Shown piece by piece: positions 3,827-36,018 of a stretch of 64,000 nucleotides of DNA (positions are counted from its first letter, which is position 1; each line of letters begins with the position of its first letter). The stretch comes from Patescibacteria group bacterium. GTDB lineage: Bacteria; Patescibacteriota; Microgenomatia; UBA1400; PJMF01. The stretch lies in assembly GCA_016861205.1 (NCBI GenBank), contig BOKX01000001.1:264539-328538 (forward strand). Direction: 5' to 3'. The notes under the pieces are model-generated. The model was not told where the DNA came from, did not search any database, and saw only the letters and a list, made by a program, of their open reading frames with translations. A program made the position numbers and the translations under genes.

Positions 3827-6550
3827 ATGCTCCGCAAAAATAATGCCACCGACTTTATTTCTTTCTTGGTTGTTTCCCTGGTAGCCTTAATGGGATTTCT
3901 GGTGGTTGTCAAACCAACCCAGGCGCAAGTTGTTGGTGCCACTTACTATGTGGCCACGACTGGTAGTAACACTAATCCTGGCACAGAATCACAACCGTGG
4001 CAGACTATTCAATACGCAGCGGCTCGGTTGCAAGCTGGAGACACAGTGATTATTCGGGGTGGCACCTATCAAGAGCAAGTAACTCCAGCCAATTCAGGAA
4101 CTGAGTCAGCGCCCATTACCTATCGAGCTTACCAAGGTGAGACGCCGGTGATTGATGGTAACAATGCCATAGGTTTAAATCTGGAAATTGTGAATAGAAG
4201 TTACTTGGTGTTTGACGGCCTTAGAGTTGAAGAGCCCGCCAATTCTTGGGCTTTGGTTGAGAACAGTCATCACATTACTTTCGCTAACATGGTTTTTGCA
4301 AACCCGACTTACCCGAGTGGATTACGACGAAGTTTCCAAGGCTTGTACTTCAGATACAGTCACCATAATGTATTACGGAACTCTCTCCTTGAGTATTGGG
4401 GACGCTATCAAGAAGGTGACAATGAAGGTAATAACCTTCGGATTGTCAGTCACGCTAATGCAGATGGTGGTTACAACTTGATTGAGGGCAATACATTCCG
4501 ATACTGTGCCAACAGTTGCGCCATGATTAACTCCTCATACAACCTGATTCGAAATAACACTTTTGATAATGAGTGGCAAAAAGGGATGGAGATTTCGTGG
4601 ATGAGTAACCCAGGTGATGAACCACCTGGTACCGAGTGGCCAGCCATTGGCAACGTAGTTGAAGACAACAACTTTGTCCGGTTTGGTCAATCACAATACA
4701 ATCACGGTGGCTACGCAATGGCTGTGGTGAGTGAGGAAAACATCATTCGACGCAACATTATGCGCAATGGTGACCATCTGGGGGTGTTTTTGAATACCAT
4801 TGACCCTTATGCGACCAACCATCGTCGAAACTATCTTTACCACAACACGATTGTTAACAATGGCTTGGATAGGTTTGAGTGGTTGGGCACTGGTGTACAG
4901 GCATCGAACTTTGGAGCTGGTTTTGAACTGCGAGACGACGTGATTAAAAACAACATTATTTGGGGCAACCTGCCTGGTGCAGGCAACAATCCTTTTCAAC
5001 TCTCGATGGAGTTGTCGGGTAGTGGCAACAGCTTGCCCTATGGTGGTTTCACCATCGCGGGAAACTTGATTCAAAACTTGAGACCGGGTTCTTGCTATCC
5101 CACATCAGGTGACTGTCCTTTCATCATTATTGGTTCGTCACCAAACACAGCGAATATTCCTACCCTCAATACTTTGAACCCCAACTTTTATGGGAATCGA
5201 GAAGGAAACCCTGGTTTTGTGCAGTACAACGCAGCAGCATCTACCTTTGATCTAAACTTAACAGCGACTTCAGACGCGGTCGACACGGGTGTGGCATTAG
5301 CGCAAACAGTGTCATCGGGCAGCGGGATTGTTGTACCTGTCACTGACGTGGGTTACTTCCGAGATGGTATGGGCCACACCACCGGTGATCTTATCCAGAT
5401 CGGAACCGAAGTCGTTCAGGTCGTGAGTATTGACCGGACTGCTAACACGTTAACAGTCGATCGGGCAATCTCCTGGGGTGCGCAAGCCGTAGTGGCGTTA
5501 CCCTACAGTGGTACTGCCCCAGACATCGGTGCGCGCGAGTTTGGTGGGCCGTTGCCATCGCCGAGCCCATCACCATCACCTTCACCAAGTCCGACACCGA
5601 CTCCAACCCCGAGTCCATCACCTAGCCCGTCGCCATCGCCAAGTCCGACACCGGAGCCAACCCCGACTCCAACTCCGAGTCCGTCGCCTAGCCCATCACC
5701 TTCGCCAAGCCCAAGTGTGGAGCCAACTCCCACCCCGACACCGTCCCCTAGCCCGAGCCCAACCCCAACTCCCACACCAACCCCCACGGCCGTGGCATAC
5801 CTCTCGGTAGCTAGCAATGGCACGCTGGGTGGAGTAGCTGTTGCCGATGAAGATATCGTCCAGCTAGATACAACCACTGGTACCTATCAAATGTATTTTG
5901 ATGGTTCAGATGTCGGCTTAGCCGCCACCAACCTTGATGCATTCGATATTTTGCCGAATGGTCACATTTTGTTTTCAACGAGCACCGAAGTTGGTTTAGC
6001 TGGAATAGGCACAGCGTATCCAGAAGATGTGACTGAGTTCATACCAACTTCAACAGGTGCTAACACGGTAGGTACATTTGCGCGTTTCTTTGACGGCTCA
6101 AATGTCAACCTGTATCAGACGACTCACAACGTCGACGGTGTTGCTTACTTGCCAGATGGTCGGGTTCTGATTTCGACAACTGGTCGGTACACTGTCATGG
6201 GTTTGGCTGCAGGCGAGGATGAGGACATCATTGCTCTGGTGCCAACCAGTTTAGGCGCCCAAACTGCAGGAACTTGGACCATGTACTTCGATGGTTCAGA
6301 CGTTGGTTTAGCCAACAGTGACGCCGAAGATGTGAACGGTTTTTACGTCGATGGTCAAGGTCGTTTAAACTTCACCACCTTTGGCAACTTCAGTGTGACT
6401 GGCCTAACTGGCGCTAACGAAGACGTTGGCCAGTTTGTGCCGACCAGCCTAGGTTCAACAACGGCGGGAACGTTTACAGCCCCGCTGCTCTTTGACGGCA
6501 GCGCTTTTGGGCTGGCTAACTTCAACGTTGATGGTTTTAAGATGCACTAA
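3827..6550 (+). CDS. Secreted or surface-anchored right-handed beta-helix (pectin-lyase-fold) protein. It has a (PS/PT)n linker and four C-terminal ~60-aa repeats
   Basis: N-terminal hydrophobic anchor or signal ([16 protein letters not shown]). Beta-helix opening motif [44 protein letters not shown]. About 77-aa linker of Pro-Ser/Pro-Thr dipeptides. Four repeats of the form G-T-x-x-x-Y/F-F-D-G-S-D/N-V-G/N-L-A. Confidence 0.8.
5555..5787 (+). repeat. Imperfect tandem nucleotide repeat (period ~60-66 nt) encoding the PSPSPS...PTPTPT linker inside CDS 3827..6550
   Basis: Repeated ccgagcccatcacc / ccgacaccgactccaaccccgagtcc units visible directly in the sequence. Confidence 0.85.
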
Positions 6551-21731: not shown

Positions 21732-21977
21732 ATGTCTGACATTAACATCAATCTCAATTTAAATGCTATCCCTGAGTGGTTTGCTCTGGTGGTTGAGAAG
21801 TTCCAAGAACTCAGAGGCGTCGAGTTCCTCTATTTGATTTTAGCGATTATTTTCCCACCACTAGCAGCATTCTTAAAAGTTGGGATCAGCACCCAATTCT
21901 GGATCAACTTGATCTTAACGATGCTCGGCGGATTGCCAGGCCAGATCCACGCTTTGTGGTTGGTGCTGTTTTGGTAA
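21732..21977 (+). CDS. Pmp3/YqaE (UPF0057) family small membrane proteolipid, with ~30-aa N-terminal extension
   Basis: LILAIIFPPLAAFLKVG...INLILTMLGGLPGQIHALWLV closely matches the Pmp3/YqaE two-helix signature. Confidence 0.75.
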   Translation: MSDININLNLNAIPEWFALVVEKFQELRGVEFLYLILAIIFPPLAAFLKVGISTQFWINLILTMLGGLPGQIHALWLVLFW

Positions 21978-22000: not shown

Positions 22001-24652
22001 TTAACGGTACAAATTCTGTAAGTCACCTTGGTAGATAGCGGTAGCAAACCAAGCCCAGTTTTGCAGGTAGTACTCGTCTCCTTCATACCAATACGCAGCT
22101 CCGTCTTGAGTAGTTGTGTATGTTGGTAAAAACTTCTCTTTGAGAATCACCTGAGCTCGTTCTGGATCAGTAATAAGAAAGACTGGTAAGTTCATAATGT
22201 AGGCATAGCGTTGCGACTTCGTTTGGGGCACCGCGTCATGCGAGTACACGTCGACCACACCACCCTGGGTGTGTTGCCAAACTAAAAAGTCAAGACTTTT
22301 GAGATAGTCAGCCGCCCGATAATCTTGATTCCATTGATAATCAAGATAGATTTTCCAAGGAATCCGAAAGGCATTGTACCCATAGTTTGAGTCGTCAGGT
22401 TGCGGTTTGGCAGACGCCACAAATGAACCCAAGTTCTTCTCGTATCTGCACCACTCGGGTGGCAAAGAACTGGAGTAATTTTTATCGAGCAAGGTTGCTG
22501 AGCAGCTTTTCAAAACTGCGTAGCTTGAATCCAAGACACTTGACCAGTCGTGATCTTGATCGACAACAGCAAAAATTCGATAAGCGTAAGGTGCTAGATA
22601 TGATGGGTTGAGTGTAACGTAGTCTGCCGAGTCAGCCCAGTTGCCCGCTGTTACAAAGGAAAACCGTTGATCACTGTACACGTTGTACTCCCAGATATCT
22701 TTAATTATTTGCTGGGCGTCTTCATAGTAGCGAGGCTCATTCCACCGCTTAGCCGCAAACAGCAAGGCCAACGCAATATCTTGGTCGGCGTCTGGAGCAT
22801 TGCCTTCGTCAATCAGGCGTTGAGATTTGTGTAAGTACTTCCAACCAAATAAATGCGACTTCTTTAACCGCATGTGTTTGTCTGTCCAAGCATAAACCTG
22901 ATCAAATGTTTCTCGATCATTCATCCAAACAGCTCTCAAAAGTGCGTAGGATTGGGCTTCTGAGATAACTGAATCGGATTGCTCAGGTGGTTGAATGTAC
23001 CCCTTCGGATTGAGGAACTTACGTTTGTATGTTTCCCACGAGGGCTGCAGATCTATGCGTTGCTGCTGATACATAACGACCCAATCACCATTGGGCATAG
23101 TTTGTTTCTGAAGTTGGAAATTGGCTGGGAACGTGGGATCGAGACTAAACTCAGCCACACGTTGACTGTTTCTGAGTGCTTGTTTAATCAGCGATTCCTG
23201 TCCTCGGTACGAGATTTGTCGTTGGACTTCAGCCGTAATCATCACGTAGTCAACGTTTCGAAAATCATTGCCAAGTTTTTTCTCGGTGATGTCTGGGTCA
23301 AGCTCAACTTTCCAGAACCAGTCTGCATTCTGAAATGTAGACTGGCCATCTGCCTGCCGATAGGTTAAGTCGAGATAGGCATAAAAATCGATAGCCATGT
23401 GTGAATCACTGGGCACATTTTTTTTGATCCAGTCAACTGCTTGCAACTGAGCAGTGGTCTCATCTTTGGTTAGGTACGTTGTAACTAACGGTCGATAGTA
23501 GTAACTCATGACCGCTACGGCAGCCAGCGCCACCGGCACCCCCAAAATCCAGTGCAGTTTTTGCAGCAACTGGCTGAAGTGACTAACGAGCACGCCAATA
23601 CACAAGCTTAAAAAGGGAATCAAGGCGATCACATAAAAATTGATGACCAGTTTGCCACTGGCTAAGAACAAGACTTGGGGCCAGGTCAGCATGAGTACCT
23701 GCCGACTTTTTTTGCTTTTAATGGCCAACATCACATGGGCAAAAAAGGCACTGTACCCGGCCACAATAAGCCACCAATCCTCTTTCATCCAGTAGGTCAA
23801 GTTGACACGAAAATCGCTAAACTGATGCCAGACTGGAAGGCCACTGCCTCTACCCGCTTGCATTGCCAACGTTCCCAGCAAGCTGACATGTGGATGTGGT
23901 GGGGAAAATGGAGAGCCTGGAGGAAAGAGCTCACCTTTCAACAACGCATACAGCGGATAGAACGAAATGACAGCTCCAGCCAGACAGAGCCACTTGATGA
24001 TGGCTATGGTTCGATGCTTTGGATGTGCATGGCTAGCAACCAACCAGACCATAGTGGGCAGGAAAAAAACCGCGTTCTCTTTGGTCAAACAAGCCAGGCC
24101 AAAAGTAATTGCGCTTACAAAGACACGGCGCAGACGAGATTTGGCCGTCATTACCAACCAAAAACTGAGCAGCACCCAAAAAACCATCAAGTTGTCTAGC
24201 AACAGCCGGCGTTGAAAGTACACGGCTAATGGTGAAACTGAAAACAAAGTCACCGCTACAAAGGCAGCTATTTTCGATCGGCTAATCTTCTTGGTGACCG
24301 CATAGAGAAGCAGTACATTCAAAAGGTGAATGAGTAGCATGAAAACGCGCCCAGAGTTAAGAGCAAAGCCAAAGGTAAACAGACCACCCGTCAAGGCTAC
24401 CCACGCGGCTGTGAAAATCCAACCAAACGGCGCATGGTCATACCAATATGTGTAGGGTGCCAATTTCCCTTGGGTTAAAAAACTCCAAGCCTGCGCGAGG
24501 TAGGTACCTTCATCGTTCTCAAAAAATGGGAAGTGGAACATGTTCCAACCGTGAAAAAACGCAGCTGCTCCTAAGAGGGCCAAGATAAATCCCAGCTCGC
24601 CATGCTGCCATACCCAGGTTTGTAGCTTTTTAAGCAGCTGCATACTGTCCAT
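22001..24652 (-). CDS. Multi-TM GT-C-fold glycosyltransferase (GT39/PMT_2/ArnT-like), N-terminal ~500 aa, fused to a C-terminal glycoside hydrolase family 8-like domain
   Basis: FENDEGTY (DE motif in first extracytoplasmic loop) and about 11 predicted TM helices. C-terminal domain has ISEAQSYALLRAV, DADQDIALALLFAAKRW and NPSYLAPYAY, resembling GH8 (BcsZ-type) signatures. The track ORF starts at 24847, but the likely start is MDSMQ at 24652 (or 24643), 20 nt inside the end of the upstream GT2 gene. Confidence 0.65.
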   Translation of the reverse strand: MDSMQLLKKLQTWVWQHGELGFILALLGAAAFFHGWNMFHFPFFENDEGTYLAQAWSFLTQGKLAPYTYWYDHAPFGWIFTAAWVALTGGLFTFGFALNSGRVFMLLIHLLNVLLLYAVTKKISRSKIAAFVAVTLFSVSPLAVYFQRRLLLDNLMVFWVLLSFWLVMTAKSRLRRVFVSAITFGLACLTKENAVFFLPTMVWLVASHAHPKHRTIAIIKWLCLAGAVISFYPLYALLKGELFPPGSPFSPPHPHVSLLGTLAMQAGRGSGLPVWHQFSDFRVNLTYWMKEDWWLIVAGYSAFFAHVMLAIKSKKSRQVLMLTWPQVLFLASGKLVINFYVIALIPFLSLCIGVLVSHFSQLLQKLHWILGVPVALAAVAVMSYYYRPLVTTYLTKDETTAQLQAVDWIKKNVPSDSHMAIDFYAYLDLTYRQADGQSTFQNADWFWKVELDPDITEKKLGNDFRNVDYVMITAEVQRQISYRGQESLIKQALRNSQRVAEFSLDPTFPANFQLQKQTMPNGDWVVMYQQQRIDLQPSWETYKRKFLNPKGYIQPPEQSDSVISEAQSYALLRAVWMNDRETFDQVYAWTDKHMRLKKSHLFGWKYLHKSQRLIDEGNAPDADQDIALALLFAAKRWNEPRYYEDAQQIIKDIWEYNVYSDQRFSFVTAGNWADSADYVTLNPSYLAPYAYRIFAVVDQDHDWSSVLDSSYAVLKSCSATLLDKNYSSSLPPEWCRYEKNLGSFVASAKPQPDDSNYGYNAFRIPWKIYLDYQWNQDYRAADYLKSLDFLVWQHTQGGVVDVYSHDAVPQTKSQRYAYIMNLPVFLITDPERAQVILKEKFLPTYTTTQDGAAYWYEGDEYYLQNWAWFATAIYQGDLQNLYR

Positions 24653-26024
24653 TTGTGGTAGGTGTACGGTGGAGATTGAGATGGGTGGTTTTTTCCCAGT
24701 TGGTTTTCTGTTGGGTGTGGCGCAAGACAGCGCGTAGAGCACTAAATGCGAGCACCATTTGATATGGTACAAAAGTAAGGACGATGGTGAGGATAACGAG
24801 AACAGACATTCTTTGGTGAAAGTCCTTCGAAAACTCGGTATAGCCAAGTATCTGCACCACCAGTTGGAGTACTAATAAGTAAAATGGATACATGACTAGC
24901 AAAGTTGCAATCACGGGTAAATCAATAAAAAACGTAGCTAAAGAAATCATCACTAACACAAAGTTCAATGCGTTCAACTGTGCCAATACTAAAAAGTATA
25001 AGGCAAACAGTCGCTTTTTGGGATTGTGAAAGGCTTGCCACTTCCGCTCAAGCAAGATTTGCAAGAAACCCTGATTCCAACGCGTGCGTTGTTTGACAAG
25101 ACTTGCGAGTGTGCCAGGACTCTCCTCCCGCGTCACTAAATCCGGGTCATACACGATTTGGATCGGGTAGTTTTGACTCGACAGTCGCAATCCCATCTCC
25201 GCATCTTCAGTAAGACAGGTATTCCAACCACCGAGTTTTGTTAGCACCTGCTTTTTAATAAACACCGTGTTCCCACCGAGAGGAACAACGCCCATTCGGC
25301 TAAATAAGTGCAGGGCAGATTTGTACCAGAAGTAGTACTCCAGCACATTCAGGGCTGAAAACCAGGTCGTTCGTAAGTTTGTAAGTTGCACGCCACCTTG
25401 CACTGCGCTGGGCTGCTTTGTTAAAAAGACTGTGTTAACCACTTGGAGTATCGCTGTTTGTGGCTCGTCTTCAGCGTCAAAGACACCGATCACGTCATAC
25501 TTGGCTGCTTTTAAGCCAAAGTTTAAAGCACTTGGCTTGTTTGATTCCAAGCTCGTGAAACTCAAGACTTTAAAATTTTTGACCCTAAGCTGGGCAATTG
25601 CGGCTCTAGCACTACGAAGTGTCTCTTTATCATCAGATTTGCACACCACTAACACCTCCCAAAGGTGGGCAGGATACTCAATGTTAGCGATAGATGCCAG
25701 GGTAGTACCAATGACTTCGCTCTCAAATCGAGCCGGAATTATGATCGAAAACGTGGTTTGAGGTGGTAAAGCAATCTTTGGCGGAGCATCTGCAGCAAGC
25801 TTGTTGGGATCTTCCCAACCATACAGCATCCAGAACAAGGTAAAAATACCTTGAAAACTGAGCGCAAACGCCGTTATGAGCAGACCTATTTTTATCGGAA
25901 GCAGCCAGTAATCCCCTTGCAGGATCACGCTTACTAAGGCTGTACAAAACAAGGTGACTAACACTGCTGTAATAGTCACCAAAAAGATAGTTATCTTAGT
26001 TTGTTTCCTGGGCAGGACTTTCAA
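24630..26024 (-). CDS. Processive family-2 glycosyltransferase (cellulose/chitin/PNAG-synthase-like)
   Basis: Two N-terminal TM helices. DAEDEP (DxD-like), TED motif (LTEDAEMGLRL) and QxxRW motif (QRTRWNQG). Further C-terminal TM helices. Confidence 0.85.
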   Translation of the reverse strand: MKVLPRKQTKITIFLVTITAVLVTLFCTALVSVILQGDYWLLPIKIGLLITAFALSFQGIFTLFWMLYGWEDPNKLAADAPPKIALPPQTTFSIIIPARFESEVIGTTLASIANIEYPAHLWEVLVVCKSDDKETLRSARAAIAQLRVKNFKVLSFTSLESNKPSALNFGLKAAKYDVIGVFDAEDEPQTAILQVVNTVFLTKQPSAVQGGVQLTNLRTTWFSALNVLEYYFWYKSALHLFSRMGVVPLGGNTVFIKKQVLTKLGGWNTCLTEDAEMGLRLSSQNYPIQIVYDPDLVTREESPGTLASLVKQRTRWNQGFLQILLERKWQAFHNPKKRLFALYFLVLAQLNALNFVLVMISLATFFIDLPVIATLLVMYPFYLLVLQLVVQILGYTEFSKDFHQRMSVLVILTIVLTFVPYQMVLAFSALRAVLRHTQQKTNWEKTTHLNLHRTPTTNGQYAAA

Positions 26025-26255
26025 AGACAGACCCCGAATTAAAATTATAGGATATTATAGCACTGTAGCCTTCAAAATTGAACCAGAATTACATTTCGAT
26101 TACAAGGCTAAGATGCTGAGAAATGATGTCATTTGATATATATAAATATTGGCAGTCACGGACTAAGACTGCTAATTCCGCTTTTCAGCAATAAGGAATG
26201 ATAGATCAATCTAAATTGTTATAGCATCGAACTGGTATAATATGCATCAAATTCT

Positions 26256-28568
26256 ATGCCCAAACCAGAAAAAGCTCCACAACCTGTTAATCGTAGTGAT
26301 GCAATTGAAAGTTGGTTGCAAAGATGTGAAGCAGGTAAGCCTGGATTCATAGAAATGCATCAGTACACGGAAGAAACGTTTCGTGCGATCAGTCCGGATC
26401 TTTTGCAACGTCTGTACGCAATGATTGAGCGGCTGATTGCTTATGAGCACTTCACTTGGCAGTTACCAACGGGTTGGCTTGAGTGGGCCAACCAGCGCGC
26501 TCAGTTACCCACCGAATCTGGCTTCAAAGCAGCAAGCGAGGTGCTCCTTTGGGCGGCAGAAATGGGGACGATGTGCGGTGTATATCTGGCGGCTATGCGC
26601 CAACTAGAAACTATTTTTCGTGATGCATCTGAACTGACACAAAAGCAGTCCCGTAGACTGCGATCATCCGAAGAGATACTTGCTTTGCAGATTAGATATG
26701 CAGAAGTGATTCTGTATGAGAGGCAACCCTGGTCACTACTCCGGTTGACTCCTCACTGGATCGGTTTATTTTTACCTGAGGTAGCTGATCAAGGTTTCGA
26801 TATTAAAGGCTATGATAAGTGTTTTTCGGTCGGGCAGATTTTAAGAGCTCATGCCAGTCGTATTCAAGATGGCAAGAGACGCTTGAATGTAAATGAGCTC
26901 AAAGAGCTCTATGGATTGGTACTCAGCATGCTAAAGGTCGAACAGTCGAGGCTGGGCACGATTTATCCAAACTACAATTTTACGGCCGGCTTGTTAAGTA
27001 CGGCCAGCGGCAGCTATGCCTACCCATTAATTGAAAAAGATCGTTCATGGATGGCACATGTCAAAAATGCAGATCAGCGTGAGTACCTACTAGCAGGTGG
27101 TCAGTTAATGAAGTTGATCAGACTGTTTCATACAGATTGGTACCTATCACTTCTCAATGAAGACGCTCGATTTCACACTGAGGCAGTAGCCATCTTTGAC
27201 TATGTCTACGCTGCCAATGAAGAGAGCGCAAAAATGCTCGTCGAAGAGGCAACAACTGCTCTTGCTCTTTATCCAGAGAAATTTGGGTTCAAAAAAACCA
27301 GCGATGCTGTAGTTTCAATTGCCCAGTGGTTTCTGAACACCCATGTGAATGACCTGGATAGAGAGTCTGCAGACGCTGAAGTACTGTACAAGTCTGACAA
27401 GCTTAATTCGCTGCAGGAACAGGTGATTTCACTTTTGATAAGTTATCACTTAAGCCTATACAACGAGCGTTTGTTGATCGGAGCTACAGGTATCACTGCG
27501 CTCAACTACATTGAGGAAGGTGTTACGCTGCCCGACGCTCAAAAATCACTGGAGTCCATTGCCAGTGCCTGTCAGCAAATACACTTGTTACACCAAAAAC
27601 AACGTAAAGCTCAAGGTACATATCAGCGCAGCGGGCATGTCAACATAGAGGATGGTCGTGATCAAGATGCAATGATGCATCATTTAGTGCCGAATCAGGC
27701 GGATATCGAGTTAACATATCAAGTCAGACAGAACTATGTGATGGCGAAAGTTTCACTTTCTGATTATGAAATTAATAGGCAAAGTATTCCTGATGCTGAT
27801 AACGCGTTATCAATTGAAGAGCTGGAGGCACAAAAGTTAATTGTGCAGTTTGCGGTCGACTTATCAACTTCTCCGGCTGAGTTTGTTTTTGAAGTGTATG
27901 ATCCTGAAGATGTCTTGCCTGAAAGTCAGGCTATTTGGGCAGCTCTACTAGCAGCTCAGCTGGAAGGATGGCTGGCTGAGTTGAAGACAGAGATCGCAGA
28001 AAACCCCATTACCGATGAGGTTGTTTTGCTTGATAAAGGTACACTTGCAAAAAAAACTGGGCAGATTCCGACTAAACCTGCTCCTGCTACTGAAAAGCGC
28101 AAAGCGTCAGGCAATGGTGCGAATGGCACAGGCTCAAGTAACGGCAACGAAGCAGATGCCTTACCAGCATTTATTGAAGCTGGTCGCCGGTTGATGTACC
28201 CGACCAGCATGATGCTGGCACCGGCTTTGGAAACTGAGGTAACAAAAAGTCGTGGTAAAGGTAGCCGAGCAGATGAGCTAGCGATTTTGTCGGATTTCGT
28301 GACTGAGTTCAATGCGAATCCTGCCAAGTTTCACTCTGAAAAAGTTACTAAAGCTGTTCGAAGTGCCAAAGCGGTTGGCCCAAATGGTGAGTTGATCTGG
28401 CGCATAAAACGAGGTGATTACCGGATTTTTGCCGTCTCACTCAATCGGTCGCAAGGCATCATCGTAGAGGTTGATCGCAAAAGTGATGAAACGTACGAGG
28501 ACATGTCTGGGCTCAAAGACAAAGCACACAAAGCTGTGACAGCACTACAAGTAACGGCGCAAAACTAA
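26256..28568 (+). CDS. Large hypothetical protein (770 aa) with a C-terminal RelE/ParE-like toxin-fold domain
   Basis: The last ~95 aa (ANPAKFHSEKVTKAVRSAKAVGPNGELIWRIKRGDYRIFAVSLNRSQGIIVEVDRKSDETYED) fit the RelE/ParE pattern. That pattern is the R-x-GDYRI-[IF]-[YA] core followed by I-x-I-x-[RH]-[RK]-x-D. No P-loop and no other recognisable domain in the first ~670 aa. A Gly/Asn/Ser-rich linker precedes the C-terminal domain. Confidence 0.6.
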   Translation: MPKPEKAPQPVNRSDAIESWLQRCEAGKPGFIEMHQYTEETFRAISPDLLQRLYAMIERLIAYEHFTWQLPTGWLEWANQRAQLPTESGFKAASEVLLWAAEMGTMCGVYLAAMRQLETIFRDASELTQKQSRRLRSSEEILALQIRYAEVILYERQPWSLLRLTPHWIGLFLPEVADQGFDIKGYDKCFSVGQILRAHASRIQDGKRRLNVNELKELYGLVLSMLKVEQSRLGTIYPNYNFTAGLLSTASGSYAYPLIEKDRSWMAHVKNADQREYLLAGGQLMKLIRLFHTDWYLSLLNEDARFHTEAVAIFDYVYAANEESAKMLVEEATTALALYPEKFGFKKTSDAVVSIAQWFLNTHVNDLDRESADAEVLYKSDKLNSLQEQVISLLISYHLSLYNERLLIGATGITALNYIEEGVTLPDAQKSLESIASACQQIHLLHQKQRKAQGTYQRSGHVNIEDGRDQDAMMHHLVPNQADIELTYQVRQNYVMAKVSLSDYEINRQSIPDADNALSIEELEAQKLIVQFAVDLSTSPAEFVFEVYDPEDVLPESQAIWAALLAAQLEGWLAELKTEIAENPITDEVVLLDKGTLAKKTGQIPTKPAPATEKRKASGNGANGTGSSNGNEADALPAFIEAGRRLMYPTSMMLAPALETEVTKSRGKGSRADELAILSDFVTEFNANPAKFHSEKVTKAVRSAKAVGPNGELIWRIKRGDYRIFAVSLNRSQGIIVEVDRKSDETYEDMSGLKDKAHKAVTALQVTAQN

Positions 28569-29200
28569 GACGTTTTGTAACTAAAGGCCACTTGGATGGC
28601 CTTGTACAGGAGCTGAAAGATGTGGACACCATTGGGCATCCGAAGTGTCCCGAGGAATGTTTTTACTTCGGCGTGGTAGCCTTCATTTCGGTAAAACTCA
28701 CGATCCAAGTCCCCTACCACCATCACCGTAGCTTCTAGTGCGATCAGTAACTGAATGTTTTCCCAGGTTGGAGTTTTGTACCTTTCTTCATCCACATATA
28801 CAATTAAACCGGATACATCAGCTAGACTAACTCCCGGATGGATGTCATCCTGGCTTGGTGGCCGACCGTGAGTAAACTGCAGAACTGCGGAATGGCGAGA
28901 AAAATGAGTACATAATTTATCAAAAGTGTCAGTTCTGACTTCTTCCGAATCGGCTGTTTGAGACAGTCGGACGTAGTTCTCAATCATGTCAGATAGCTCG
29001 ATGATGACCTTTTTGGCACGCTCAACGCTCAAGGTACTATCTTGCGGGTCAAGCTTAAGAGCTTGTTCTGAGGTAATAACCGCCTGACCAATATATCGTG
29101 GGTCAAAAGGATTTTCGGGCTGATCGTAAAAAGAGTTTGGTAGGGGTGGCAAAGGCCGTCGAGGATGAAATGGTTTGTTTGCTTTATCGGGGTTGTTCAT
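28565..29200 (-). CDS. Hypothetical protein
   Basis: Start MNNPDK at 29200 preceded by an AGGAG RBS. The track ORF extends to 29227. Pro-rich N-terminus, several His. No known motif. Confidence 0.45.
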   Translation of the reverse strand: MNNPDKANKPFHPRRPLPPLPNSFYDQPENPFDPRYIGQAVITSEQALKLDPQDSTLSVERAKKVIIELSDMIENYVRLSQTADSEEVRTDTFDKLCTHFSRHSAVLQFTHGRPPSQDDIHPGVSLADVSGLIVYVDEERYKTPTWENIQLLIALEATVMVVGDLDREFYRNEGYHAEVKTFLGTLRMPNGVHIFQLLYKAIQVAFSYKTS

Positions 29201-29366
29201 ACAGTAACTCCTGCTACTAGCTAGCACGATCCTACTGTGTTTGAGTCAAGTTTGCTACTGGCTAGTTTAAGCCACGTAGCGCTACCTTAGGTATGTGAAA
29301 ATTTGAGTTCTAATCCGAGTCGGAAGGATCTCATTCAAAAAAAACTATGTTGCGATAATAGTTAAT

Positions 29367-30557
29367 TTAACTAGATATGAGCAGTCCCTCGATAATCCCA
29401 AGCAATTTTCTCTGTACATCAACTATATGAGCTCTGGCCTCTGCATTGAGCTCACTTTGACGATCTTTAATTGTGTGAAATTGTCCGTCTGTAGCGCCAA
29501 TTTGATTGGAAGCTACGAATGTGCGGGGTGCAACTCTGAGGGTGCTTTTTTGCTCTGTAAAATCATGCGTGTAACCAAGTGAACCAAAAATACCTTTGTG
29601 TGTTAGGTTCCATGTTGGTTCATTTGCGGAACGAGCTGGCCGAGCATTTTGGGCTATTTGAAGTAACAAAGCTTGTGATGCCGGGGTAATTTCGCGATGT
29701 TTTTGCAAATATTTAGATACGTTTCTAACCCGTTCTTCCTGATCTAAAGGCAAGTAGCGATTGTAATTATCCAACTCAAAATTAGTCATACAGCTGGCAA
29801 TTTCTTGCCAACTCATTTTCCAAAAGCTCATGATCTCACTGAGTAGTTGCTGGTCATCTCTGTCAATAGTTGGGTTCAGGTCAGTTTGCTTGAGAATAAT
29901 TGAAGAGGTTGTTTTATCAAGCCCCACATGTGGGTAGACGCCCTTTAATATATCAAAAGAAATCAGAATGGTTGGGTCCCACAGCACATGTTTGAAGCTT
30001 GGCTGGCGTTGTAACTCATGTGACAGATAACCAGTGCTCTGCATTGATTCTGGTATGCCATAAACGTGCCAGTGCATCTGTGGATAGGTGGTGGCGTACG
30101 GCTGATGATGATCAGCTTCACCTGGGCCAATATGCTGGATAACATAGAGCTTTTTAAGCGGATCTTGTTGTTCAGCTGCTGCACATATATTGGCTGAGAT
30201 AGCTGCATTAATCGCATCAAACATTAGTGTGCGAGCATCATATGGTAACTCATCCAAACTATGCACTAAACAATTGGAACCTTTTGGGAAACAGTTCAAC
30301 AGTAAATCATACGCGGAATTAACTGCATTTTTTAAGTAAAAAAAGAGGCCATACTGCTCTGTTCCAGGCAAAAGTAAGGCTGTTCCATTCTCAACCATGT
30401 CCCTTAAACCAAGTTCTAGTATGTCTTCATAGGAAGCATTCCGCAACATATCTAGGGTGGCGTGTTCAAAGTTCTTAATTAAACCTGTGTGGTGGAGACG
30501 TGGTACGGCAACCTCCCGTCGATGACTAGCTAGAACTTCAAATGATCCAAAACTCAT
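29367..30557 (-). CDS. Hypothetical protein (His-rich; possible HIT-like/GalT-like MHWH motif)
   Basis: Likely start MSFGSF at 30557 (the track ORF from 30605 would overlap the ChbG gene). Contains DHHQPY...QMHWHVYG. Function unknown. Confidence 0.45.
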   Translation of the reverse strand: MSFGSFEVLASHRREVAVPRLHHTGLIKNFEHATLDMLRNASYEDILELGLRDMVENGTALLLPGTEQYGLFFYLKNAVNSAYDLLLNCFPKGSNCLVHSLDELPYDARTLMFDAINAAISANICAAAEQQDPLKKLYVIQHIGPGEADHHQPYATTYPQMHWHVYGIPESMQSTGYLSHELQRQPSFKHVLWDPTILISFDILKGVYPHVGLDKTTSSIILKQTDLNPTIDRDDQQLLSEIMSFWKMSWQEIASCMTNFELDNYNRYLPLDQEERVRNVSKYLQKHREITPASQALLLQIAQNARPARSANEPTWNLTHKGIFGSLGYTHDFTEQKSTLRVAPRTFVASNQIGATDGQFHTIKDRQSELNAEARAHIVDVQRKLLGIIEGLLISS

Positions 30558-30595
30558 GGAGCATATCCTACAAAATCTTCTCAATAAGACAAGGG

Positions 30596-31408
30596 TCAAA
30601 TACACAATAGATGTGTATACGTGGTCAGGTGGATATTATTAGACCTAACGAGCTCTAGGATAAGATTAGAAGTTAGAATTGCTAGCTCTGTCTCGCGTGC
30701 TTCACGATAACTACTTAGCAAAGCTAAAGAAGCATCATTGTAACCGGGATGCACCATAAGTTCAGTGACAGCCTCGGTTAATGACGTCAAAATTTCCTGA
30801 AGTACTTCAAGGCTTGCCTTACCAGCAAAAAATTTAGTTAGTAAGGCGTCTGTCGTGCGAACGAAAAGTTCCTCTGAGTGATGCTGTTTTTGAAAGGTCT
30901 GGCTTGTTGTGGACATTGTAGGTGTGTAGACACTGGCACTTCGAATTGGTAAATCATGTTCACTAGCCAGGTACTGCATAACCTGAAAAAGGGTCGGATG
31001 TTTATATGAAATATGATGATGTGAGTCCAAATGATCGGGATATACATTGCAGGCAATCATGGCTGCAATTTGGGCTGACCACTCATCGTAGACTTGGTTA
31101 GGGTCTAGAAATTCAGCCTTACTTCTGATTTCAGCTAGACTGTGAAAATGACCATTGGTGTTAACAAGAGATGGAACCTTGTCAGGCGATAGCAGAGGTT
31201 GTCCAGTTGTGAGATTAAGATGGGTACCTATAGCTAGTTTAGGCGTTTGAGCTTTGGCTAGAGTAAGATCACTTTCAACACCCGGTACATTCATCATGGC
31301 TGTTGTTGATGTGACAATACCTTGCCTGTGAGCAACTCGAATTCCTTCAGAAACTTTTCTAGTTAATCCATAGTCATCGGCATTTACGATTAAGCATTTT
31401 TCTGGCAT
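30596..31408 (-). CDS. ChbG/YdjC-family carbohydrate deacetylase
   Basis: N-terminal NADDYGLT motif and the HLDSHHH metal-binding motif of YdjC/ChbG. Confidence 0.8.
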   Translation of the reverse strand: MPEKCLIVNADDYGLTRKVSEGIRVAHRQGIVTSTTAMMNVPGVESDLTLAKAQTPKLAIGTHLNLTTGQPLLSPDKVPSLVNTNGHFHSLAEIRSKAEFLDPNQVYDEWSAQIAAMIACNVYPDHLDSHHHISYKHPTLFQVMQYLASEHDLPIRSASVYTPTMSTTSQTFQKQHHSEELFVRTTDALLTKFFAGKASLEVLQEILTSLTEAVTELMVHPGYNDASLALLSSYREARETELAILTSNLILELVRSNNIHLTTYTHLLCI

Positions 31409-35508: not shown

Positions 35509-35583
35509 TGGTGACCCCACGGGGAATCGAACCCCGGTTACCGGGATGAAAACCCGATGTCCTAACCGCTAGACGATGGGGCC
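35509..35583 (-). tRNA. tRNA-Glu (anticodon UUC), CCA encoded
   Basis: Cloverleaf read by eye: acceptor GGCCCCA/TGGGGTC, anticodon stem TCGGG/CCCGG with loop TTTTCAT, T-arm CGGGGTTCGATTCCCCG, 3' ACCA. Confidence 0.88.
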
Positions 35584-35649: not shown

Positions 35650-36018
35650 TTACCTGGTCCAGCTGACATTTTTAAAATGCTCTACTCGACCTGGCAAGAC
35701 TGATATTATATCGAATCGAAAGGCATTCTCCAAGTCGGACTCGGCTAAGTAGGCTAAAGCCGCCTGATACCACGCTCGCCGCTTGCGCCAGTTCACGGCT
35801 TGCGTTGGGTGGCCGAATTGGTCAGCTGATCGAGTTTTGACTTCGACAAACACCAGTTCTTGGGTGGTTGGGTCAATGACTACCAGATCAAGCTCAAGAT
35901 TACCGGAGCGCCAGTTATGGTGGCGAATCGCATAACCGTGAGCCACTAAAAACCGAGCGGCGATGGTTTCACCAGCTCTACCGAGTTGTTGATGTGTGGA
36001 ATTACTTGGCAGCTTCAC
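35650..36018 (-). CDS. yraN: YraN/UPF0102-family endonuclease-like protein
   Basis: [12 protein letters not shown]...DLVV...[10 protein letters not shown] pattern of UPF0102. Conserved position next to rplS. Confidence 0.78.

Follow-up and report, generated by a model that had tools for sequence, protein, structure and literature searches.

A predicted RelE-type module at the end of a large, rare and fast-evolving protein of Patescibacteria

RelE-type nucleases are textbook components of two-gene toxin-antitoxin pairs, and they cut mRNA on the ribosome. What does such a fold do at the end of a protein of 770 residues, and what might hold it in check there? The question is raised by a gene at positions 26256-28568 of a 64,000-nucleotide stretch (the window) of contig BOKX01000001.1, which comes from a Patescibacteria group bacterium. 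An earlier reading of the letters alone, called here the sequence-only reading, had singled out this gene as an orphan whose last ~95 residues follow the RelE/ParE pattern, and had offered several functions for it. The protein is best filed as a lineage-restricted multidomain RelE/BECR-fold effector, namely a new divergent RelE-branch family with an uncharacterised partner region of ~630 residues.

The gene is genuine, and not a chance open reading frame (ORF), because its frame is intact in seven independently assembled strains and synonymous differences prevail. Seven contigs from independent sequencing runs share the gene order and an unbroken frame of 770 codons, the copies being identical or nearly so, and the comparison with the most distant of the seven strains gives 18 synonymous differences over 517 sites against 6 nonsynonymous differences over 1793 sites. 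The ratio of nonsynonymous to synonymous differences per site (pN/pS) is ~0.10, while the adjoining glycan genes have values of 0.03-0.06 in the same strain comparison. The ORF list bears out both the extent of the gene and the C-terminal peptide quoted in the sequence-only reading, GELIWRIKRGDYRIFAVSLNRSQGIIVEVDRKSDETYED, which corresponds to residues 711-749; beyond it, the C-terminus ends in TAQN.

The C-terminal module and the region before it

The family is invisible to curated hidden Markov models (HMMs), and a seven-sequence alignment together with structure prediction is needed to see the RelE-like domain. The isolated module matches no curated family HMM at E<=10, the modules of seven members match no RelE/ParE HMM at that threshold, and the module profile finds nothing among PDB sequences at E<=10. 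None of the curated families of the BECR superfamily (13 Pfam BECR toxin families; RelE/StbE, YoeB and others in NCBIfam) takes it in. Because no curated model detects the module even at this permissive level, reference profiles for the RelE branch and for ParE were built from a few PDB-verified sequences, five in the case of ParE.

Given the seven-sequence alignment, AlphaFold2 models the module with a pLDDT of 80.4 and a pTM of 0.80, in the order strand-helix-helix-four strands-helix. The predicted structure contains the elements of the BECR fold: an N-terminal strand, two helices, an antiparallel sheet and a C-terminal helix. In the Foldseek comparison with the PDB, which had been recommended for this region, RelE/ParE-superfamily toxins fill the first 11 places, with a best E of only 7e-3. 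The top match is an archaeal RelE (1wmi; probability 1.00, target-normalised TM 0.60), and pneumococcal HigB, PfiT, HigB2, ParE2 and ParE1 are among the further top matches; in the structural comparison, every ParE structure ranks under the RelE, HigB and YafQ structures. The viral structure library BFVD gives weak matches only, to small uncharacterised proteins. A RelE/ParE-like fold is predicted, as the sequence-only reading had expected, and this part of its claim stands. The extent that it gave does not: the module covers ~105 residues (about 645-750) and is followed by an extra helix of ~20 residues, which in the model is possibly the counterpart of RelE helix alpha3.

Profile comparison points the same way. 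The 8-member module profile aligns with the RelE-branch profile over 84 columns, corresponding to RelE residues 2-91 (hhalign probability 80.1%, P=1.4e-5). Against the ParE profile the value is P=0.26, like those of the reversed controls (P=0.07 and 0.23). As a yardstick, the RelE and ParE reference profiles match each other at no better than P=0.016. The assignment is sound at the level of fold and profile. By its sequence profile, the module falls with RelE and the mRNA interferases within the RelE/ParE (BECR-fold) superfamily, where it forms a new and very divergent family.

Are the catalytic residues of RelE retained? Those of the E. coli protein, which we take to be K52, K54, R61, R81 and Y87 (numbering checked on PDB sequences), are paired by hhalign, in a remote and provisional alignment, as R716/K54, Y722-R723/Y60-R61, K742/R81 and Y747/Y87. 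R723, D740 and Y747 are invariant in all eight members, position 716 is Arg or Lys in every one, and a basic residue is found at 741/742 throughout, K742 being replaced by Arg in the six distant members. The position of K52 is hydrophobic in the family (I/V714) and that of R56 (K718) is variable, as far as the same provisional alignment goes. The outcome of this check, which had been proposed earlier, is mixed: the Arg and Tyr (R723, Y747) and the presumed counterparts of K54 and R81 are kept, and the equivalent of K52 is missing. The family ending, VD[DN]R..VY, is very similar to VDHRADIY of M. tuberculosis Rv2866/RelG. An extra strand, a GPNGE loop and a K-G motif are additions specific to the module. 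Its isoelectric point (pI) is ~9-9.6 in five of the eight members and 8.0 in one, a calculated basic charge that would be consistent with rRNA binding.

Another question concerns the long region that precedes the module, whose layout is given in Table 1. Its ~630 residues give no meaningful match to Pfam, PADLOC, PHROGs or PDB sequences in the seven members scanned, and sequence searches of the family members reveal in it neither a P-loop nor an HTH, a CARF or a known antitoxin domain. The earlier remark that the first ~670 residues hold no recognisable motif is valid for all seven. Weak matches of single members (methyltransferase 9dg7, E 0.046; KH_TffA; DUF6930; Cas6f, E=0.019; phrog_20802) were judged to be noise, and no internal repeats were found in the N-terminal region. 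The full-length AlphaFold2 model, made from a two-sequence alignment (pLDDT 39), was taken for rough secondary structure only; at this low confidence, residues 583-634 have none. According to charge and composition, the linker is basic in most members, and the middle domain has a pI of 4.1-5.3 in all eight; the latter carries a conserved block, KFR..V....V.FPV.D, in the seven-member alignment A3. Its position before the basic linker and the module is suggestive only, and the acidic domain may be regarded as a candidate in-cis neutralising (antitoxin-like) element. The protein should be cytoplasmic, because hydrophobic segments are lacking throughout the family (in every member, the 19-residue Kyte-Doolittle mean peaks at < 1.6).

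A rare family at a fixed position

How isolated is this protein? The whole chain has no match in Pfam, NCBIfam or PADLOC at E<=1, and a word-indexed search of 5.8 billion clusters returned only the protein itself and one relative, P0002, with 57% identity. When 1.84 billion representatives were searched exhaustively by HMMER, the profile of these two sequences added five more relatives (P0003-P0007, E 9e-6 to 4e-4), all matching through the C-terminus; four of them are 705-742 residues long, and the fifth ends at a contig edge. The metagenome scan contributed one further distinct member (L094, 736 residues), and a scan of genome contigs with the family alignment found no relative encoded in reference genomes. 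The word-indexed search missed P0003-P0007 and gave back only known close members when seven-member and four-member alignments served as query, even though such distant sequences were part of the query itself. Indexed searches can miss distant relatives in this way, so that an orphan call based on them alone would overstate isolation. So far the family has eight members of ~700-770 residues with one shared architecture; it is rare, and it occurs in Patescibacteria-type assemblies only. The word orphan is essentially justified, with few relatives in billions of sequences, and no well-characterised family was found to hold the whole protein, the relatives being rare and uncharacterised themselves. 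The viral contigs of IMG/VR contain no relative of the 770-residue protein, and a phage or mobile origin of the gene was rejected on this ground.

The members fall into two clades: the window protein with P0002, and a distant clade with the remaining six. For the C-terminal module, homology across the clades is clear (hhalign probability 99%, P 9e-18), and the N-terminal regions of the two give a weak collinear alignment (P 1.8e-4 vs 0.41 for the reversed control).

The orphan appearance of the gene is explained by the fact that it keeps its position while diverging faster than the genes around it. The contig of the closest orthologue, L001, is collinear with the window on both sides, at 83-85% nucleotide identity (blastn/tblastx), and shares with it Pmp3 on the left and tRNA-Glu, UPF0102, L19, PRT, CTP synthase and DnaE on the right. 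Between these flanks lies a segment of variable content, and the sole gene common to both of its versions is the 770-residue family gene. Eight other genes common to the two contigs encode proteins that are 79.5-99.3% identical, compared with 56.7% for the family protein. Similarly, the gene order in the distant clade is class-II aminoacyl-tRNA synthetase (aaRS), a 109-residue protein, the family gene, an AspRS-type gene, peptidase S11, GluRS, YbeY and DnaX; between genomes, the synthetases are 82-91% identical and the family protein is 28-45% identical. The family gene holds its position, yet it outpaces all the surrounding genes in divergence. Within the protein, the module is the slowest-evolving part, with 75% identity to the orthologue vs 46-61% elsewhere, and the N-terminal region is the fastest. 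Positive selection was considered and is unsupported: synonymous sites are saturated between the window and L001 (pS ~0.8), so that dN/dS is not estimable for this pair, and the within-species data show purifying selection.

Does the gene have a partner? The sequence-only reading had noted no antitoxin or immunity gene in the usual position, and this extends to the whole family, the neighbours of which are unconserved and carry no antitoxin-type domain (RHH, HTH, Phd, RelB). The wider search for homologues and their neighbourhoods that it had suggested gave eight members with no shared immunity or antitoxin gene and no adjacent secretion-system genes. The idea of a conserved partner gene was given up when neither the unannotated neighbours, compared all against all, nor Pfam scans showed one; the 220-residue gene downstream has no counterpart in L001, beside the 57% orthologue. 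The locus does not have the form of a type II toxin-antitoxin pair, as the toxin-like module lies inside a chain of 770 residues and the neighbours are convergent or divergent and unconserved. As for a fused toxin-antitoxin mono-gene, no known antitoxin domain is found by sequence, and an acidic domain precedes the linker and the module. PADLOC-DB 2.0 gives no meaningful match for any member, the Cas6f match mentioned above being noise. The neighbours are glycan-metabolism or housekeeping genes rather than defence genes, and an EcoRI-type restriction-modification (R-M) pair occurs in one context only.

A divergent gene for a protein of 305-359 residues without a family is present in three of four distinct distant-clade contexts (L088 6795-7874, L089 6929-7876 and L096 4922-5839, all on the minus strand), with 39-47% identity among the copies. 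Neither L091/L095 nor the window's clade has this gene; it could be an accessory partner, or its presence could reflect synteny and nothing more.

A possible mechanism and its alternatives

What could a RelE fold do when joined to such a partner region? The reading that we favour, with a rough probability of 0.45, is a one-gene, self-restrained RelE-type translation shut-off protein. Its C-terminal module would be an active ribosome-dependent mRNA endonuclease, which would reach the ribosomal A site on a basic flexible tether of ~60 residues and cleave the mRNA there. The acidic alpha/beta domain and the helical region of ~470 residues would stand in for the missing antitoxin and hold the nuclease off in cis, until a signal acting on the fast-evolving N-terminal part released it. 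The pace of this part, which far outstrips the genome in divergence, points to the recognition of a partner that itself changes quickly; a component of a phage or of the host cell is the most plausible candidate. The proposal builds on what is established, that is, the reality of the gene, its domain layout, the RelE-type fold, the conservation of active-site positions, the lack of a conserved partner gene and the asymmetry of rates. What it adds by inference is that the module acts as a nuclease and depends on the ribosome, that it is inhibited in cis and released by a trigger, and that the protein may serve in defence. Several points weigh against the proposal: the chromosomal position is fixed in a housekeeping-like manner, no defence family matches, and the gene is under purifying selection within the species. 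A more far-reaching version, which we hold to be doubtful, would see in the family a class of immune or conflict sensors that is specific to Patescibacteria and consists of a single protein, in which a large helical domain of new fold, diversifying rapidly, senses a phage or host-cell molecule and frees the tethered RelE nuclease to enter the ribosomal A site. Under this equally tentative proposal, the sensor gene would stay at a fixed chromosomal site, outside mobile islands, and would be hidden from toxin-antitoxin and defence catalogues because both of its halves had diverged past HMM detection.

Housekeeping ribosome-dependent endonucleases exist, and by a comparable logic the RelE fold might have been domesticated into a lineage-specific, non-toxic ribosome-associated factor for A-site mRNA surveillance and decay or for translational control, with no conflict system involved. 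Such an origin would suit the conserved chromosomal position in both clades, by translation and replication genes, the single copy per locus, the gene that is intact in all seven strains at the low pN/pS given above, and an immediate neighbourhood that has neither defence nor mobile-element genes nor a PADLOC match. However, in none of the comparisons does any gene at the locus evolve faster, and such a rate would be unusual in a core translation factor; the gene sits, in the window's clade, in a segment of variable content by a tRNA gene, and members of the family are very scarce among the 1.84 billion representatives, though rapid divergence could hide relatives. On balance we regard domestication as unlikely, if worth keeping in view. 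The module might also have a RelE-like fold that is catalytically inert and serves in protein or RNA binding or as a scaffold, its Arg and Tyr being structural, or the fold might be a false positive. The silence of the curated RelE/ParE HMMs, the missing K52 equivalent, the moderate structural scores, and the invariant D740, which adjoins a basic residue and to which nothing in E. coli RelE corresponds, all lean this way; even so, we judge it improbable.

The remaining alternatives are less probable again. A polymorphic-toxin-like effector was one of the options of the sequence-only reading, whose interpretation finds partial support. Such an effector would be secreted or delivered, with an N-terminal trafficking domain and a module injected into the host bacterium of the presumed episymbiont or into competitors. 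Signal peptides and hydrophobic segments are lacking in all members, secretion-system genes do not adjoin the gene, no downstream immunity gene is conserved, and a conserved C-terminal module behind a variable N-terminus is the reverse of what polymorphic toxins have, all of which makes delivery quite improbable. An ordinary two-gene toxin-antitoxin pair would need an unrecognised antitoxin, either the convergent 220-residue gene, which overlaps the stop codon by 4 nt, or the divergent 305-359-residue gene that recurs in the distant clade. Since the former has no counterpart beside the orthologue, the latter is missing from L091/L095 and from the window's clade, the neighbours are without an antitoxin-type domain and a convergent or divergent arrangement makes no operon, we consider such a pair very improbable. 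A ParE-type module, which would poison DNA gyrase without cleaving mRNA, is the least probable of all: the ParE structures rank below those of RelE, HigB and YafQ, the ParE profile does no better than the reversed controls, and the family keeps an invariant Arg...Tyr C-terminal motif where the compared ParE sequences end in LHxxMD instead. According to a published account, ParE toxins do without the catalytic residues of the RNases (PMC11980606).

Where does the favoured self-restrained nuclease stand among known systems? The RelE-branch interferases (E. coli RelE, M. tuberculosis RelE1, Rv2866/RelG, aRelE, HigB, YafQ) have the same fold order and are the best structural matches, and the likeness extends to an end-to-end profile match, to the residues at the K54, R61, R81 and Y87 positions and to the basic charge. 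Unlike these toxins, which stand alone at ~90 residues, the module forms the last seventh of a 770-residue protein with no adjacent antitoxin gene; it also differs in its fixed chromosomal position, its hydrophobic K52 equivalent, its invisibility to HMMs, and the extra strand, GPNGE loop and K-G motif. In Cami1, RelE is joined to a CARF sensor, and the activated form cleaves A-site mRNA (PMC11229360). Cami1 is a cA4-activated ancillary effector of type III CRISPR, whereas the 770-residue family has no CARF or recognisable sensor domain, and no CRISPR-cas genes are among the annotated neighbours in the gene tables of seven contexts; the present protein's N-terminal portion is, moreover, about three times larger and has no known fold. 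The catalogue of Gerdes (2025) comprises fused and multidomain BECR toxins (ParD-ParE, YefM-YoeB and RelE-YiaG mono-genes; PtuZ; ToxM) and expressly sets aside, unanalysed, many multidomain BECR proteins for which no antitoxin could be identified or whose members are few (PMC11980606). Like that set, the present family has a BECR-fold toxin domain within a larger polypeptide; unlike it, the family is reached neither by Pfam membership nor by BLAST to known toxins, the two routes by which the set was found. Its fused partner contains no known antitoxin (RHH, HTH, Phd/YefM), PIN-like domain or transmembrane segment, and there is no PtuA-like ATPase or nuclease operon.

The proposed restraint within one polypeptide has a parallel in CapRel(SJ46), where one part of a single chain is proposed to keep a translation-targeting toxin in check up to the binding of a trigger (PMC9712102). 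A recognition domain would be expected to evolve fast. CapRel is a toxSAS enzyme, whereas the present module has a RelE nuclease fold; the domain order differs, the sequences are unrelated, and the family gene has a conserved chromosomal position and is not prophage-borne. From polymorphic toxins (contact-dependent inhibition, Rhs, and cargo of type VI and type VII secretion systems) the family differs in that it has no trafficking domain, its C-terminus is the most conserved part and its downstream genes are unrelated. The protein is most like a sensor-RelE fusion, yet it lies outside Cami1, the Pfam BECR families, strict type II toxin-antitoxin systems and the polymorphic toxins.

Why does this matter? 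The principle has precedents; the finding of the domain is solid, and the gene evolves in an unusual manner. The theme of RelE as an effector, known from Cami1 and from antitoxin fusions, is extended to bacteria of the candidate phyla radiation (CPR), which are poorly known for defence and growth control, and a partner region of ~630 residues without detectable relatives outside the family is added to it. The gene also exemplifies how fast-evolving, position-fixed genes slip past HMM-based catalogues. If the protein is indeed a cis-restrained nuclease, its N-terminal region would be a new regulatory or sensor fold, and the whole would be a compact, antitoxin-free translation switch and a possible tool. 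If it is a housekeeping factor instead, it would illustrate the domestication of a toxin fold in minimal genomes.

The locus and its neighbours

Table 1. Coordinates of the gene, the predicted parts of its product and the surrounding segment (window positions)
Feature	Position	Strand	Description
Whole gene	26256..28568	+	ATG start, 770 aa, stop included in span; from the ORF list
N-terminal region, residues 1-470	26256..27665	+	predicted all-helical, mildly acidic, pI 5.8
Middle domain, residues 471-585	27666..28010	+	predicted beta-beta-alpha-beta-beta-alpha, strongly acidic
Linker, residues 586-644	28011..28187	+	low-complexity, Ala/Gly/Thr/Lys-rich, predicted disordered
RelE-like (BECR-fold) module, residues 645-750	28188..28505	+	predicted beta-alpha-alpha-beta4
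C-terminal helix, residues 751-770, after the conserved Tyr	28506..28565	+	helix at module positions 121-137 in the AlphaFold2 model
Divergent AT-rich intergenic region	26025..26255		231 bp, 32.9% GC vs 47.0% in the whole window
Variable chromosomal segment	21985..35509		13.5 kb here vs 4.3 kb in L001
Segment anchors	Pmp3 21732-21977; tRNA-Glu 35509-35583		from gene tables and tRNA scan

The window is ordinary chromosome, with five tRNAs, CTP synthase and DnaE. The DnaE sequence is closest, at ~70% identity, to those of MAGs assigned to Paceibacterota, Microgenomates and 'Patescibacteria group', in keeping with a Patescibacteria/CPR source. The immediate surroundings of the gene are as the sequence-only reading had them: the GT2 gene (24630..26024, minus strand; Pfam Glyco_tranf_2_3, E 4e-39) is transcribed divergently across an AT-rich spacer of the expected ~230 bp, and the downstream 220-residue gene (28565..29227, minus strand) is convergent, sharing 4 nt with the stop codon of the 770-residue gene. 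Read directly, the spacer contains an extended -10-like element, TGGTATAAT, at 26233-26241, 14 nt upstream of the ATG, and no Shine-Dalgarno motif precedes the gene; together these imply a very short leader or leaderless-type initiation. A consensus promoter scan of 26025..26255 called no full -35/-10 promoter and did not flag TGGTATAAT, which from its letters may act as a promoter element.

In the window, the variable segment contains GH8/PMT, GT2, the 770-residue gene, two orphans, YdjC, EEP, a kinase-like gene, a second GT2 and CofD; in L001, it contains the family gene and two unrelated orphans. The set for glycan and lipid modification (GH8-PMT, GT2, YdjC, EEP, kinase-like, GT2, CofD) is missing from L001. 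Its first gene (22001-24847, minus strand) encodes a PMT_2 membrane glycosyltransferase-like N-terminus and a GH8 glycoside hydrolase C-terminus, and adjoins the processive-type GT2 gene; to judge by their domains, this CPR genome seems to have here a synthase and a hydrolase paired in a cellulose-like manner. As ORFs they overlap by 218 nt, and the later start called for the GH8/PMT_2 gene (880-883 residues) leaves an overlap of 14-23 nt. The two orphans downstream of the family gene (28565-29227 and 29367-30605, both on the minus strand; 220 and 412 residues by ORF, 211 and 396 as called) have no Pfam, NCBIfam or PADLOC match; they are kept in the seven strains and absent from L001. On the right flank, UPF0102 (35650-36018, minus strand; YraN-like, with a weak NERD match) is the next-fastest common gene, at 79.5% vs 86-99% for the other neighbours.

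Two observations concern the distant clade. In L091/L092, an EcoRI-type restriction enzyme and a D12-class methyltransferase (4074-5899; JACFOE010000001.1) are inserted next to the class-II aaRS, and the family gene follows ~2 kb downstream of them. By ORF sizes alone, the pair is apparently absent from L095, a 1.2-Mb contig with a near-identical family protein; if so, the class-II aaRS flank would also be an insertion site. The AspRS-type ORF, finally, is 623 residues long in L094 (5365-7236) and L096 (8403-10274; both on the plus strand) vs 467-471 residues in L088/L091. Either the protein is extended at its N-terminus there, or the ORF call took in an alternative start further upstream.

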